Positions 46,401 to 51,150 of a DNA stretch of 64,000 nucleotides are shown here, one piece after another. Made by a program: the position numbers and the translations under genes. Position 1 is the first letter of the stretch. Each line of letters begins with the position of its first letter. The notes beneath the pieces are model-generated. The model ran no database searches, was not told the origin of the DNA, and was given only the letters and a program-made list of their open reading frames with translations. Origin of the DNA: a bacterium (GTDB lineage: Bacteria > Patescibacteriota > Microgenomatia > UBA1400 > UBA12108); the NCBI GenBank assembly GCA_021788365.1, contig JAJYKS010000001.1:3887-67886 (forward strand). Direction: 5' to 3'.

Positions 46401-48560
46401 TAACCATAGAACAGTTATAGTTACTGCTGCCGTTCACCGGGGCTTCGATCAAAGGCTATCCCGAACAAGTCGGGGTTACCCTCTCAATTAACCTTCCGGC
46501 ACTGGGCAGGCCTCAGCCCGTATACGTTGACTTGCGTCTTCGCACAGACCTGTGTTTTTGTTAAACAGTCACTTCGAGTTATTTATCTGCGTTCCATACA
46601 TTGATACAAGTACCAACATACAGAATAGGCATCTCCCTAAGTTACGCCTAGTTGATTTGCCGAGTTCCTTAAGGGAGGTTCTCTCGCTCACCTTGGTATT
46701 CTCTACCAGTTCACCTGTGTCGGTTTGCGGTACGGATATAGAACATTCTCGTTGCGAAGGTTTTCTTGGATCTAGAAAGTGGGCAGAGTCACCGCGGCCG
46801 AAACCGCAATTCCCCATCACGCCTCGGGTCATAACGCCGGCTACGGATTTGCCAATAGCCAACTACCTTAACGCTTGGACGCCAATTCAATAAGACGCCC
46901 TGCTCTTCCCTGACCGTCACTCCCCAACTAATAATGAACGCCCTATAGGACCGGAATATCAACCGGTAATCCATCGGCTACGCCGGCATTACACCAGCCT
47001 CACCTTAGGGCCGCCTCACCCCACGTCGACGAACGTTGCGTGGGAAACCTTGAACATTCGGTGTGGAGGATTCTCACCTCCATCTCGCTACTCATCCCGC
47101 CATTCTCACTTCTAACCGCTCCACCGCAGCTTACACTGCGACTTCACCGCTGTTAGAACGCTCCCCTACCAGTCATCTCGAATAAATTCGAGATAAATCC
47201 GCAATTTCGGTACATAGCTTGAGCCTCGATGAGTCTTCGGCGCCACTATCCATCGACTAGTGAGCTGTTACGCTTTCTTTCAAGGATGGCTGCTTCTGAG
47301 CCGACCTCCTAGCTGTTTATGGACAATGACTTCCTTGAACCACTTAGCTATGATTTAGAGACCTTAATTGGCGATCTGGGGTGTTTCCCTTTTGTGCCTG
47401 GAACTTAGCTCCCAGGCGCTGACTCCCGAGATAAACATGCGCAGTATTCGGAGTTTGATAAAGTGAAGCGCCTTGCGACGCCGCACCTTTTCAGTGCTCT
47501 ACCCCCACCCATGCATTACTCGAGGCTATACCTAAATATATTTCGGGGAGAACCAGCTATCTCCGGGTTCGATTGGTATATTGCCTCTAACCACAAGTCC
47601 TCCAAGACTTTTGCAGCAGTCACTGGTTCGGCCCTTCCCCCAATTTTACTTGGGGTTCAGCCTGCTCATGGTTAGCTCACTCCGGTTTCGGGTCTTGGCC
47701 ACACTGCTTGACGGACTATTCATCCTCGCTTTCACTACGCCTCCGTGACGATATCACTTAGACTAGCAGTATAGGCAAACTCGACGGGTCATTCTTCAAT
47801 AGGCACGACATCATCCCTTGCGGGACTTTGTCTGTTTGTTAGCACACAGTTTCAGGTACTATTTCATTGGGTGTCTCACCCTTCTTTTCACCTTTCCCTC
47901 ACGGTACTCGTTCACTATCGGTCATATTGTGTATTTAGCCTTACCCCGTGGTCGGGGTAGATTCCGCAGGGAGTTTGCCGTCTCCCAACGTACTCAGGTG
48001 CCAAATTAACGTTAGCTTGATTTCGTATACGAGATTTTCACTCTCTATGATCACCTATTCCACGGTGTTCTACTATCTTGCCAACATCGTATATCTGGTC
48101 CTACAACACCATAATAAATTATGGTTTGGGCTATTCCCTGTTCGCTCACCGCTTACTAAGGGAATCTCATTCGATTTCTTTTCCTTCGGTTACTTAGATG
48201 TTTCAGTTCACCGAGTTACCCACCCTAGATAAATCCAGGGTTCCGCACTATTGCTAGTGCAGGGATTACTCCATTCGGACACCGCCGGGTCACAGGATCG
48301 AGACTCCTCACCGACGACTTTCGCGGTCTTGTGCGTCCTTCTTCGGCACAATATGCCAAGGCATCCACTGTATGCTTTATTTGAGTAGCTTGATACAAAA
48401 TTCAATTCAATTCAAATTTTAGATGCTTTTCCTACTCTTCACTTGTTAATGTGCAACCTCTCGATTTTACTCGAGGTCATCAGGTATCTTGCGATACTTG
48501 AAAGACGAGAGCTTGAAAGCTCAGTTTTGCATTACTGAACTTTCAAACATGTCGTTTGTG

Positions 48561-48633
48561 TGGACCGTGCCGGGCTCGAACCGGCCACCTCTTCATTGCA
48601 AATGAAGTGCTCTACCAGATGAGCTAACGGCCC
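48561..48633 (-). tRNA. tRNA-Ala (anticodon UGC)
   Basis: Minus strand: GGGCCGT-TA-GCTC-ATCTGGTA-GAGC-A-CTTCA-TTTGCAA-TGAAG-AGGTG-GCCGG-TTCGAGC-CCGGC-ACGGTCC-A. The G3:U70 Ala identity pair is present. Lies about 165 nt upstream of the 23S 5' end. Confidence 0.9.
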
Positions 48634-48829
48634 TCCTTCGCTAAAGCTACGGAGGGCAAAGCCCGTCTTAGCTTACGAGGTACGATCTCTATTAAAGGTG
48701 CGAAGGGATTAAAAATCCCGCTCAGGCGGGACTTCACACGAGATACAAATGACGGCTAAAAAGGCGAGGTAGGTGGGACTATGTAGCGCGTTGTTTGCAT
48801 AAAGTGGAATTGACTCCCGAGCGGACGTA

Positions 48830-48859
48830 ATTGTAACCTACATATACCCTAGCGGTCAA
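48830..48859 (-). promoter_or_regulatory. Candidate sigma70-type promoter for the tRNA-Ala/23S/5S unit
   Basis: Minus strand TTGACC (plus 48854-48859), 18 nt spacer, TACAAT (plus 48830-48835). Located between the inverted tRNA-Ile and tRNA-Ala. Confidence 0.3.
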
Positions 48860-48894
48860 GGGGGGGAACGTGATAAAATCCACACTGTTGTTTT

Positions 48895-48970
48895 GGGCGA
48901 TTAGCTCAGCTGGTTAGAGCGCAGTCCTGATAAGACTGAGGTGCATGGTTCGACTCCATGATCGCCCACC
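48895..48970 (+). tRNA. tRNA-Ile (anticodon GAU), on the strand opposite to the rRNA genes
   Basis: Plus strand: GGGCGAT-TA-GCTC-AGCTGGTTA-GAGC-G-CAGTC-CTGATAA-GACTG-AGGTG-CATGG-TTCGACT-CCATG-ATCGCCC-A-CC. The reverse complement does not fold as a tRNA. Confidence 0.85.
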
Positions 48971-48980
48971 GATATGGCAG

Positions 48981-49451
48981 TTACTGTTTCCCCTGTGTGA
49001 TATCTGCAAGAACTTCTTTGGCGTGGGTGACAGGGTTTACCTTTTCGTAGACTTTGTAAATAATTCCTTGTGGATTTATGAGGAATGACGTTCGAGCCGT
49101 TCCTATATAGGTGCGACCCATAAATTTTTTCTCACCCCACACACCATAGTCGGCGACCGTCTTTTTCTCTGTGTCTGCTAGGAGAATAAAGGGAAGATTA
49201 AACTTGCGTGCAAATTTTTTATGACTTGCGACTGAGTCAGTACTGACGCCCAAAACGACGCAGGTGTGTTTGTCAAAGGTGGGAAAACTGTCGCGTAGAG
49301 AGCATGCCTCGGTAGTGCAGCCCGGTGTGTTGTCTTTGGGATAGAAATACACGAGAACCCATTGGCCTTTGTACTGGGAGAGGGATCGCGTTGTTCCATC
49401 TTGGTCAGCGAGCGTAATTTCTGGAGCAATGTCGCCGACTTTGAGTAGCAT
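48981..49451 (-). CDS. bcp: Thiol peroxidase / peroxiredoxin Bcp, located inside the 16S-23S spacer
   Basis: 156 aa. 'VLVYFYPKDNTPGCTTEACSLRDSF' peroxidatic-Cys motif and the Bcp/PrxQ fold throughout. Confidence 0.85.
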   Translation of the reverse strand: MLLKVGDIAPEITLADQDGTTRSLSQYKGQWVLVYFYPKDNTPGCTTEACSLRDSFPTFDKHTCVVLGVSTDSVASHKKFARKFNLPFILLADTEKKTVADYGVWGEKKFMGRTYIGTARTSFLINPQGIIYKVYEKVNPVTHAKEVLADITQGKQ

Positions 49452-49465
49452 ACTTACATTGTATC

Positions 49466-49494
49466 AGTAATTAGATACAAAAAATCCCACGGGT
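49466..49494 (-). terminator. Rho-independent terminator-like hairpin between the 16S 3' end and the bcp start
   Basis: Minus strand ATCCCACGTAACCCGTGGGAT followed by TTTTTTGT (plus 49466-49494). Lies 170 nt downstream of the 16S 3' end and 15-20 nt upstream of the bcp ATG. Confidence 0.45.
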
Positions 49495-49572
49495 TACGTG
49501 GGATTAGTTTGTTAGTACGTTTCGCGAAGTTCAACTTTTGCAAAGAGATGGTAGCACTCGAATTCTTTTAAG

Positions 49573-49602
49573 GTTCGGTTATGTTTAAACAGATAACCGA
49601 AC
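49573..49602. promoter_or_regulatory. Perfect 30-nt palindrome GGTTCGGTTATGTTTAAACAGATAACCGAAC in the 16S 3' trailer
   Basis: Exact inverted repeat centred on GTTTAAAC, seen directly in the sequence. Could be an rRNA processing stem or a protein-binding operator. Confidence 0.3.
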
Positions 49603-49663
49603 AAATGCTGTGGACGTATACAATTCCCCATACAGGGCGGGTCGTGATACCCTTTATACTCCT

Positions 49664-51150
49664 AGAAAGGAGGTGATCCATCCGCTCCTTCCAGAACGGA
49701 TACCTTGTTACGACTTAGCGCTCATCGCTGACCTTACCTTTGGCGGGTCCACCTCTTGCGAGTTTGGATTTCCGACTTCAGGTACTGCCAACTTTGCTCA
49801 CTTGACGGGCGGTGTGTACAAGGAGCGAGAACGTATTCACCGCGGCCTGCTGATCCGCGATTACTACCGATTCCGACTTCATGGAGGCGAGTTGCAGCCT
49901 CCAATCTGAACTGAGGGAAGGTTTACGGGATTGGCTCCCCCTTGCGGGTTGGCTACCCATTGTTACTTCCCATTGTAGGATGTGTGTGGCCCCAGGTGTA
50001 AGCGTCATGCTGACTTGACGTCGTCCCCTCCTTCCTCCCTTGATACTATCAAGAGCAGTCTCGCGTGAATATTCAACACACGATAGGGGTTTCGTTCGTT
50101 ACCGCACTTAAGCGGACGCCTCACGACACGAACTTACGACAGCCATGCAACAGCTGTGTATCACTCTCGAAGAAGTCCAGCTTTCACTGGATTTGCAGAT
50201 ACATGTCAAACCTGGGTGAGGTCTTTCGCTTCGTATCGAATTAAACCACATGCTCCACCGGTTGTGCGCTCCCCCGTCAATTCCTTTGAGTTTTAGCCTT
50301 GCGGCCGTACTTCCCAGGCGGGATGCTTAACGCGTTAGCTTACGTCTCCCAGGTATCCCGAGAAACTAGCATCCATCGTTTACGGCTAGGACTACAGGGG
50401 TCTCTAATCCCTTTCGCTCCCCTAGCTGTCGTCTATCAGCGTCAGATATTGCCTAAGTGCCTGCCTTCGCCTTTGGTGTTCCTCTCGATATCAACGGATT
50501 TCACCCCTCCACCGAGAATTCCAGCACTCCCGACAATCCTCTAGCGATGCAGTATGCACAGCACTTTCACGGTTGAGCCGCGATCTTTAACCATGCACTT
50601 ACAAAGCCGCCTACAGAACGCTTTACGCCCAGTAAATCCGGATAACGCTTGCACCCCACGTATTACCGAGGCTTCTGGCACGTGGTTAGCAGGTGCTTTC
50701 TAGTATGGTACCTTCAAAATTTATTCCCATACCACAGTGGTTTACAACCCGAGGGCCTTCTTCCCACACGCGGCGTCGCTGCGTCAGACTTTCGTCCATT
50801 GCGCAAGATTCCCAGTTGCTGCCATCCGTAGATGTAGGACCCGTGTCTCAGTGTCCTTGTGGGGGACCATGCTCTCACATCCCCTACCCGTCGTAGCCTT
50901 GGTGGGCCATTACCCCGCCAACTAGCTGATGGGACGCAGGTTCCTCTCTCGGCGACCAGTTATGGTCTTTGATCCGTGGACCTCATTCGGTATTACCCCG
51001 CCTTTCGGCGAGCTATCCCCAACCAAGAGGTAGATCCCTACGTATTACTCACCCGTCTGCCACTAAACTTAGTATTGCTACTTAGAATCGTTCGACTTGC
51101 ATGCTTAAGGCACGCCGCCAGCGTTCATCCTGAGCCAGGATCAAACTCTC
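49664..51150 (-). rRNA. rrs: 16S ribosomal RNA
   Basis: 5' end AGAGTTTGATCCTGGCTCAGGATGAACGCTGGCGGCGTGCC (rc of 51110-51149). 3' end ...GGATCACCTCCTTTCT (rc of 49664-49679). About 1.49 kb with no insertion. Confidence 0.9.

Follow-up and report, generated by a model that had tools for sequence, protein, structure and literature searches.

Does an rRNA locus whose 16S-23S spacer holds a protein-coding gene and a tRNA gene on the opposite strand still form one operon, or has it become a row of separately transcribed units? The question is raised by a 64,000-nucleotide stretch of DNA (the window; contig JAJYKS010000001.1, positions 3,887 to 67,886 of the forward strand, NCBI GenBank assembly GCA_021788365.1) from a bacterium of the Patescibacteriota (Microgenomatia), one of the candidate phyla radiation (CPR) bacteria, in which a peroxiredoxin gene, bcp, and an inverted tRNA-Ile(GAU) gene lie between 16S and 23S. 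Judging from the predicted signals around each gene, the locus would be a chain of four autonomous, physically adjacent transcription units and not one operon, a reading to which we assign a probability of about 0.7. The rRNA genes and tRNAs were located by Infernal/Rfam, and tRNA identities were obtained from ARAGORN, as follows.

49666..51156, minus strand: 16S rRNA gene, full length (Infernal/Rfam RF00177, 1412 bits)
48981..49451, minus strand: bcp, encoding a BCP/PrxQ-type peroxiredoxin of 156 amino acids (aa) (Pfam AhpC/TSA)
48895..48970, plus strand: tRNA-Ile(GAU) (Infernal/Rfam and ARAGORN [GAT], 65.2 bits)
48560..48633, minus strand: tRNA-Ala(UGC) (Infernal/Rfam and ARAGORN [TGC])
44559..48381, minus strand: 23S rRNA gene (Infernal/Rfam), running about 900 nt beyond the bacterial model
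44286..44402, minus strand: 5S rRNA gene (Infernal/Rfam)

Along the minus strand the order is 16S, a hairpin with a run of six T residues (T6), bcp, the opposite-strand tRNA-Ile, TTGACC-18-TACAAT, a hairpin with T5, tRNA-Ala, 23S, and 5S, with one 23S and one 5S gene present in the window. The 16S-23S spacer measures 1284 bp (49665-48382+1). tRNA-Ile(GAU) is the sole gene of the locus opposite in strand to all rRNA genes, and it converges with bcp across a gap of 10 nt; tRNA-Ala lies 178 nt ahead of 23S and downstream of the post-16S hairpin (T1), bcp, tRNA-Ile, and the internal promoter. The original prediction, made from the nucleotide sequence alone, had described these elements, and each was recovered by independent means. 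Infernal/Rfam and ARAGORN agree that tRNA-Ile is opposite to the rRNA strand, the same-strand placement proposed as a counter-test being found by neither. The open reading frame (ORF) at 49451..48981 on the rRNA strand within the spacer encodes a real AhpC/TSA peroxiredoxin (Pfam, E=3.6e-40), the terminator-like hairpin after the 16S trailer (49505..49483) folds with a free energy (dG) of -16.6 kcal/mol (z=-4.8), and the sigma70-like promoter ahead of tRNA-Ala/23S, TTGACC-18-TACAAT, matches at 10/12 positions.

The predicted signals that delimit the units, together with the elements of the two rRNA leaders, are listed below.

51413..51440, minus strand: predicted 16S promoter, TTGCGT (51440..51435), a 16-nt spacer, and the extended -10 TGTTACAAT (51421..51413)
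51343..51364, minus strand: hairpin in the 16S leader, GCCCTG/CAGGGC with T5, lying after the predicted promoter
51285..51296, minus strand: boxA-like CGCTCCTTAACA in the 16S leader, with the core GCnCnTTAAnA conserved in seven lineages
51192..51216, minus strand: 5' half of the 16S processing stem, pairing over ~25 bp with the trailer at 49557..49532; AAAGAGATGGTAGTACCG is invariant in seven lineages
49532..49557, minus strand: 3' half of the 16S processing stem, in the trailer; GTGCTACCATCTCTTTG is conserved in eight lineages
49477..49505, minus strand: T1, terminator-like hairpin AATCCCACG-TAACC-CGTGGGATT followed by TTTTTTG, predicted end of the 16S unit
49458..49466, minus strand: predicted extended -10 TGATACAAT for bcp, 6 nt ahead of the ATG, with no Shine-Dalgarno sequence; invariant in relatives
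48871..48879, plus strand: predicted extended -10 TGATAAAAT, 15 nt upstream of tRNA-Ile
48830..48859, minus strand: predicted promoter TTGACC-18-TACAAT of the tRNA-Ala-23S-5S unit, back-to-back with the tRNA-Ile promoter
48711..48735, minus strand: 23S-unit leader hairpin, (G)TCCCGC-CTGA-GCGGGA(T) followed by T5 (dG -14.4, z -2.7)
48688..48703, minus strand: boxA-like TCGCACCTTTAATAGA, of which TCGCACCTT is invariant in five lineages
44237..44260, minus strand: predicted operon-final terminator after 5S, ATCCCCC-GCAA-GGGGGAT followed by TTTTTTGTA (tail written TTTTTGTA)

In the proposed arrangement, TTGCGT-16-TGTTACAAT would drive the leader, 16S, and trailer, with the leader/trailer stem serving in processing and T1 marking the end. 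Directly after T1, TGATACAAT would start a leaderless bcp mRNA, while on the opposite strand TGATAAAAT would drive tRNA-Ile(GAU), convergent into the 3' end of bcp. The fourth unit would run from TTGACC-18-TACAAT through its leader, tRNA-Ala, 23S, and 5S to a second terminator of the T1 form. That these signals act as promoters and terminators is what we infer from the comparisons below.

The locus was compared with close relatives represented by seven contigs (16S identity 99.3-99.5%), which carry 16S(+), bcp(+), tRNA-Ile(-), an HAD hydrolase gene(+), and tRNA-Ala(+), with L097, and with six loci found via the conserved 16S-trailer block. The HAD-family hydrolase gene (208 aa) lies between the inverted tRNA-Ile and the 23S-unit promoter in L084 (4121-4747, plus strand), L085, L088, and L083; the spacer of the HAD-bearing relatives is ~2.0 kb (in L084, 16S ends at 3298 and the sequence ends at 5282, ~20 nt short of 23S). 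L097 (16S identity 92.6%), sister to the window clade in a rough neighbour-joining tree, has 16S(+), tRNA-Ile(GAT)(-), tRNA-Ala(+), 23S, and 5S, with no ORF in its 1043-bp spacer. L101 (88.3%) has the canonical, co-oriented gene order. Ordinary protein genes follow 16S in L103 and L104, and a LAGLIDADG ORF (LAGLIDADG_3) is found right after 16S in L105. Synteny across the family includes an epimerase gene ahead of 16S.

In an alignment of seven lineages with 88-100% 16S identity, the TTG and TGnTAnAAT portions of the predicted 16S promoter were invariant, and the spacer between them varied. L083 carries a different gene upstream, and there homology to the window starts at the -35 of this promoter. 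As 16S in L103 and L104 stands next to ordinary genes, the 16S unit can stand alone. The 16S-leader hairpin is kept with altered stem sequences in L097, L103, L099, and L105, and covaries. Leader-trailer stems were seen around both 16S and 23S; RNAduplex comparisons of leader and trailer with long flanks gave weak statistics (the 16S result was equalled by 1/30 shuffles and the 23S result by 0/30), and the ~25-bp stems themselves are evident on inspection and from their conservation. For two substitutions in the L084/L085 trailer no compensation was found in the 16S leader, one giving a bulge and the other a U-U mismatch; covariation therefore gives no evidence for the 16S processing stem.

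T1 has a 9-bp stem with five GC pairs and a T6 run, and none of 200 shuffles folded as well; a stable GC-rich hairpin with an immediate U-run is the sequence pattern of an intrinsic terminator. The hairpin, which also folds on the plus strand, is unchanged in close relatives. At the same place, L101 has the strong hairpin AAACCCACC...GGTGGGTTT with T6 (a T-run written TTTG), carrying two compensatory pairs relative to T1 of the window. The T1 tail GGGATTTTTTGTA is the same as that of the post-5S terminator. Six terminator-like sites fall in the spacer, against 1.7 expected; 40 kb of protein-coding sequence showed no enrichment of such sites. Only one other hairpin with TTTTTTGTA was found among the protein-coding sequence of the window, CCCGC-CGTGA-GCGGG TTTTTTGTAG at 36227-36251 (plus strand), and it has the same form as the post-16S and post-5S terminators.

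The hexamers of the predicted 23S-unit promoter are the same in L084, L085, and L088 and in L097, and the 18-nt spacer between them has three unrelated sequences; TACAAT with the downstream GCTCGGGAG is invariant in five lineages, including L101. In close relatives TTGACC...TACAAT directly follows the stop codon of the HAD gene, and so it is no protein-gene promoter. L097 retains TTGACC-18-TACAAT, the GCTCGGGAG block, the hairpin, and the boxA-like element, and L101 has TTTACA-17-TACAAT with the same leader before tRNA-Ala. The 23S-leader hairpin shows two compensatory pairs in L084/L085 (TCTCCC/GGGAGA) and is present in L097 and L101. The boxA-like elements are conserved, as CGCTCCTTAACA in the 16S leader and TCGCACCTTTAATA in the 23S-unit leader; both resemble TGCTCTTTAACAA, the E. 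coli boxA. A metagenome scan with the promoter block GGTTACAATTACGTYCGCTCGGGAG gave 0 matches in a collection that evidently does not contain these samples.

A predicted -10 stands at the same distance from tRNA-Ile in four lineages. At the aligned position, close relatives have TAGAAT, with TAGAGA 17 nt upstream, and L097 has TAGAGA-17-TACAAT; in L101, where the gene is co-oriented with 16S, TGCTAAAAT lies 22 nt ahead of it. The body of tRNA-Ile is the same in the window and its close relatives apart from a 3' CCA that the relatives encode, and the flanks diverge (both spacer tRNAs encode CCA in L084/L085, neither in the window). No significant terminator was found between tRNA-Ile and bcp, nor downstream of tRNA-Ile in L097 (z ~0). 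The tRNA-Ile of L097 matches that of L101 in reverse orientation, with 90% identity over 80 nt, and the inversion is thereby shown directly. The gene was probably also replaced in the window clade, because its identity to L097 (13864-13936, minus strand) is as low as 72% despite 100% identity of tRNA-Ala between the window and L097 and 89% identity of tRNA-Ile between L097 and L101; against L097 and L101 (5656-5728, minus strand) together, the window clade shows 70-72%. This replacement perhaps came together with the arrival of bcp.

The bcp product gives a full-length match to Pfam PF00578 AhpC-TSA (137.2 bits against a cut-off of 26), with the motif P38-K-D-N-T42-P-G-C45-T-T-E-A-C50 supplying a PxxxTxxC peroxidatic Cys and a second Cys five residues on; the motif is conserved in the relative protein P0002. 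The two proteins share 94% identity, and their genes differ by 16 synonymous and 10 non-synonymous codons, or ~6% of nucleotides; bcp is evidently under purifying selection. From the 16S end to the bcp ATG, close relatives differ from the window at only three of 214 nt, against ~6% in bcp, so trailer, hairpin, and TGATACAAT are under constraint. By its upstream geometry the predicted bcp mRNA looks leaderless. A TAnAAT -10-like hexamer starting 12-13 nt ahead of the ATG, with no Shine-Dalgarno sequence, occurs at 5/51 crude ORFs of the window, bcp among them, against a roughly estimated chance expectation of ~0.25 ORFs.

10557, 14666, 31230, 49451, and 62496, all minus strand: ORF starts with the leaderless geometry

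This suggests that leaderless mRNAs are common in the genome from which the window comes and that bcp conforms. In sequence, bcp is 60-70% identical to ordinary bcp genes of Patescibacteria; the blastn of rRNA and tRNA sequences against the 80 loci of its nearest homologues in species-representative genomes found rRNA adjoining none. A widespread bcp-in-spacer arrangement was rejected, the ~70% homologues P0003, P0004, and P0012 lying in ordinary contexts such as sod-bcp. Window bcp agrees with the BCP/PrxQ subfamily in domain and cysteine motif and differs in genomic position only. It appears to be cargo: a gene inserted at the border of a module and equipped with a leaderless promoter of its own. 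Another candidate origin for this promoter, a stranded ancestral tRNA-Ile promoter (a post-T1 site like TGCTAAAAT of L101), was considered; L097 has no such motif there.

Taken over all relatives, the family appears to include all stages, beginning with a co-oriented locus and ending with complete unlinkage, with the predicted signals present even where gene order is canonical, and on these signals the whole Microgenomates-type family shares the modular design. For the order of events we infer the following series. The ancestor of the family would already have had autonomous modules, and inversion of the tRNA-Ile module would date to the ancestor that L097 shares with the window clade. Two insertions would have followed, bcp between T1 and the 3' end of tRNA-Ile, and HAD in the interval from the tRNA-Ile promoter to that of the 23S unit; the window lineage would later have lost HAD by deletion. 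This deletion is proposed because the 11-mer AAAATCTCTAG next to the HAD start codon is shared by the HAD-bearing relatives and L097 and is missing from the window; tblastn found no HAD remnant in the window, and the deletion was thus clean. In L088 the HAD gene is combined with a window-type leader, a mix that suggests recombination among strains. With a promoter for each stable-RNA module, inversion of tRNA-Ile, gain or loss of bcp and HAD at the borders, and relocation of 16S all become possible.

Several observations count against the four-unit reading. The motif TGnTAnAAT is not enriched (9 sites in 64 kb against 7.3 expected, with 3/9 lying, correctly oriented, at the predicted 16S, bcp, and tRNA-Ile promoters), and terminator-like sites are likewise not enriched genome-wide; the calls therefore rest on position and conservation. 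Conservation is partly recent ancestry, as the close relatives are merely 0.5-0.7% diverged in 16S, and the neighbour-joining tree behind the event order is crude. L097, L103, and L099 have a weak or atypical hairpin after 16S. Each of the two rRNA leaders also contains a hairpin with T5, placed between the predicted promoter and the boxA-like element, a position in which efficient termination would do harm. It follows that hairpins of this kind in this organism either do not always terminate transcription or are overridden, and this weakens the argument that the post-16S hairpin must terminate. Those in the leaders would be either weak/pause sites or overridden, with pause site, attenuator, and terminator for upstream genes as candidate roles; near the start of the 23S-unit leader, GCTCGGGAG might base-pair with the 5' arm of the hairpin there. 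The boxA-like elements also suggest antitermination, which might weaken T1 too. All this bears on the rival view of a single operon, in which a boxA/Nus-protected polymerase would read through T1, bcp, and tRNA-Ile (in antisense) into tRNA-Ala-23S-5S, with auxiliary internal promoters and bcp expressed from processed read-through. Its main argument is that hairpins with T-runs in the leaders evidently do not stop rRNA synthesis; it further gains from the boxA-like elements themselves, from the co-orientation of all genes but tRNA-Ile, from a 1284-bp spacer that is under the 1500-bp cut-off for "unlinked," and from the conservative scoring of such cases as operonic by Lui et al. (2021; PMC8172020). 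However, T1 is as strong as the operon-final terminator and has the same ending, the 23S-unit promoter is under hexamer-specific constraint, and relatives with a fully separate 16S indicate a self-sufficient 16S unit. Antitermination of E. coli rrn operons acts mainly on Rho-dependent and not on intrinsic terminators. Read-through would also meet tRNA-Ile transcription, with its own conserved -10, head-on, and a long 5' leader would make for poor translation of bcp, which has no Shine-Dalgarno sequence. We consider a single operon unlikely, if still the most serious competitor of the four-unit chain.

The remaining alternatives concern the inverted tRNA-Ile and the assembly itself. A tRNA-Ile that is a decaying or redundant copy, inverted without functional meaning while a functional tRNA-Ile(GAU) resides elsewhere, would fit the lack of an encoded CCA, and the 64 kb inspected belong to a genome of at least 580 kb. 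Nevertheless, the gene has a complete cloverleaf and a score of 65.2 bits, retains the GAU anticodon, A37, and the A73 discriminator, keeps an identical body in the window and its relatives while the flanks diverge, and has a -10 element upstream in all four lineages. CPR genomes also usually have a single rRNA locus and single-copy tRNAs, and we regard a redundant copy as very improbable. The original prediction had called the gene antisense; by itself it is not antisense to anything functional and is better described as an autonomous gene that has a -10 of its own and converges with bcp. Only slightly less doubtful than the redundant copy is a regulatory device in which read-through from the tRNA-Ile promoter, antisense across bcp to the reverse face of T1, would couple bcp inversely to stable-RNA synthesis. 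This presumes that the tRNA-Ile promoter, as a stable-RNA promoter, follows growth rate; peroxiredoxin would then be low during growth and released under stress or starvation, and T1 would double as a two-way insulator shielding 16S. Finally, short-read assembly could in principle have joined bcp and an inverted tRNA to rRNA genes through conserved rRNA sequence. rRNA regions are notorious for mis-assembly, and the two assemblies that contain the window sequence may come from the same reads: the bcp protein is identical on DAHXIW010000001.1 (580 kb; GCA_027372535.1, a metagenome-assembled genome [MAG] at NCBI) and on the ENA contig k141_1441074 (118 kb), both with 100% identity to window positions 42981..55451 (12.4 kb). 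Yet the 16S-bcp, bcp-tRNA-Ile, and tRNA-Ile-...-tRNA-Ala junctions recur on the seven contigs of the distinct close lineage, from seven assemblies (two MAGs and five metagenome assemblies), a JGI contig from another relative, at genus level, carries the inverted tRNA-Ile as well, and the spacer sequences are lineage-specific, unlike conserved rRNA. A chimera, which the original prediction had named as a hazard, is thereby excluded as far as sequence data allow, and we give it next to no credence. The original proposal of separate 16S and 23S-5S units holds up in its core, with conserved promoters, a covarying terminator, and relatives with unlinked 16S in its favour; its wording on rarity, antisense, and stress defence does not, and the stress-defence framing of bcp in particular adds nothing demonstrable.

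Further features were noted within and beside the rRNA genes. The excess of ~900 nt in 23S is a candidate group I intron with a LAGLIDADG ORF.

45886..46287, minus strand: LAGLIDADG_1 ORF in 23S (E=1.2e-22)

The Rfam model Intron_gpI (RF00028) matches the adjoining 45814..46019 (minus strand) with 40.6 bits (E=1.6e-8), short of its gathering score of 50. Other rRNA insertions were seen in relatives, the 23S of L097 being ~1250 nt longer and the 16S of L099 ~800 nt longer. At the 3' end of tRNA-Ala, L084 (~5065-5135) and L085 carry 60 nt of inserted sequence with a 10-bp direct repeat, CACGGTCCAC, on either side (alignment columns 1801-1860), and L084 has a 21-nt palindromic insertion after the leader hairpin (alignment columns 1645-1665); these look like small mobile or duplicative insertions. 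Just ahead of the 23S 5' end, at ~48396-48420 (minus strand), lies an AT-rich repeat, aaaatttgaattgaattgaatttt, related to a tandem heptamer, TGAAAATTGAAAATT, that is found just upstream of at least three start codons (19703-19717, 21649-21677, and 63416-63430, all minus strand). There are five matches to TGAAAATTGAAAATT against 0.19 expected, and repeats of this type could serve as an UP-element, translation enhancer, or regulator site.

Split rRNA loci have been described in CPR bacteria before. Brewer et al. (bioRxiv 10.1101/705046), who call the genes unlinked when the 3' end of 16S and the 5' end of 23S are separated by more than 1500 bp, found CPR rRNA genes to be often unlinked. Lui et al. 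(2021; PMC8172020) found this in 27/34 circularised CPR genomes, described a class whose spacers hold tRNAs and protein genes, and noted that some "operonic" loci are possibly uncoupled, subject to closer analysis; the window locus is one such case. At 1284 bp, the window locus falls short of the >1500-bp limit of Brewer et al., and the HAD-bearing relatives (~2.0 kb) would pass it; in the scheme of Lui et al. it fits class C and not class D, since the opposite-strand tRNA-Ile is present but the distance is 1284 bp. The CPR surveys use distance (>1500 or >2000 bp) and strand rules, by which the locus would be scored linked or operonic, and rules at 1500-2000 bp would thus under-count split operons. 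They report mostly homing endonucleases as spacer genes, where the window has a housekeeping peroxiredoxin, and include no analysis of promoter/terminator anatomy or of an opposite-strand spacer tRNA. The series within one CPR family (88-100% 16S identity), from a co-oriented locus with terminator and internal promoters, through a flipped tRNA-Ile and the gain of one or two protein genes, to a fully separate 16S, suggests that functional uncoupling precedes physical unlinking. It also carries a warning for 16S-ITS-23S long-read amplicons and spacer-tRNA markers in CPR, as the spacer may hold protein genes and inverted tRNAs.

The original description of the arrangement as rare even among CPR is overstated: L097 shares the inverted tRNA-Ile without bcp, L101 shares the three-module design, protein-gene spacers have been described in CPR (PMC8172020), and an inverted tRNA-Ile is known from Borrelia (PMC3037291). 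In Borrelia burgdorferi, tRNA-Ile alone is opposite in orientation among the genes of the rRNA region, and reverse transcription-PCR identified three transcripts, 16S-tRNA-Ala, tRNA-Ile, and 23S-5S-23S-5S (Bugrysheva et al. 2011, PMC3037291); the legend to Fig. 1 of PMC4370689 also gives the layout of this locus. Both loci have adjacent but split 16S and 23S-5S genes with an inverted tRNA-Ile between them. They differ in that tRNA-Ala travels with 16S in Borrelia and with 23S, behind an internal promoter, in the window; in the tandem 23S-5S duplication and >3-kb spacer of Borrelia, against a single copy and 1284 bp; and in that separate transcripts were measured there and are predicted from sequence here. 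The Borrelia spacer presumably also holds protein-coding genes, including one for an HAD-type hydrolase. As Borrelia belongs to a different phylum, the origin is independent. With an E. coli rrnB-type operon (P1/P2, a boxB-boxA-boxC leader, and T1/T2) the window locus shares gene order, spacer tRNA species, leader-trailer stems, boxA-like elements in leader and spacer, and a terminal intrinsic terminator, and it differs in the terminator after 16S, the inverted tRNA-Ile with its own promoter, the strong internal promoter, and the spacer protein gene. The known picture of rRNA gene organisation is unchanged, with detail added. The window locus adds one more case to the split rRNA loci known from Borrelia and CPR and is not a new kind; specific to it are the peroxiredoxin cargo, the sub-cut-off compactness, the tRNA-Ala riding with 23S, and relatives that appear to capture the steps of the break-up.

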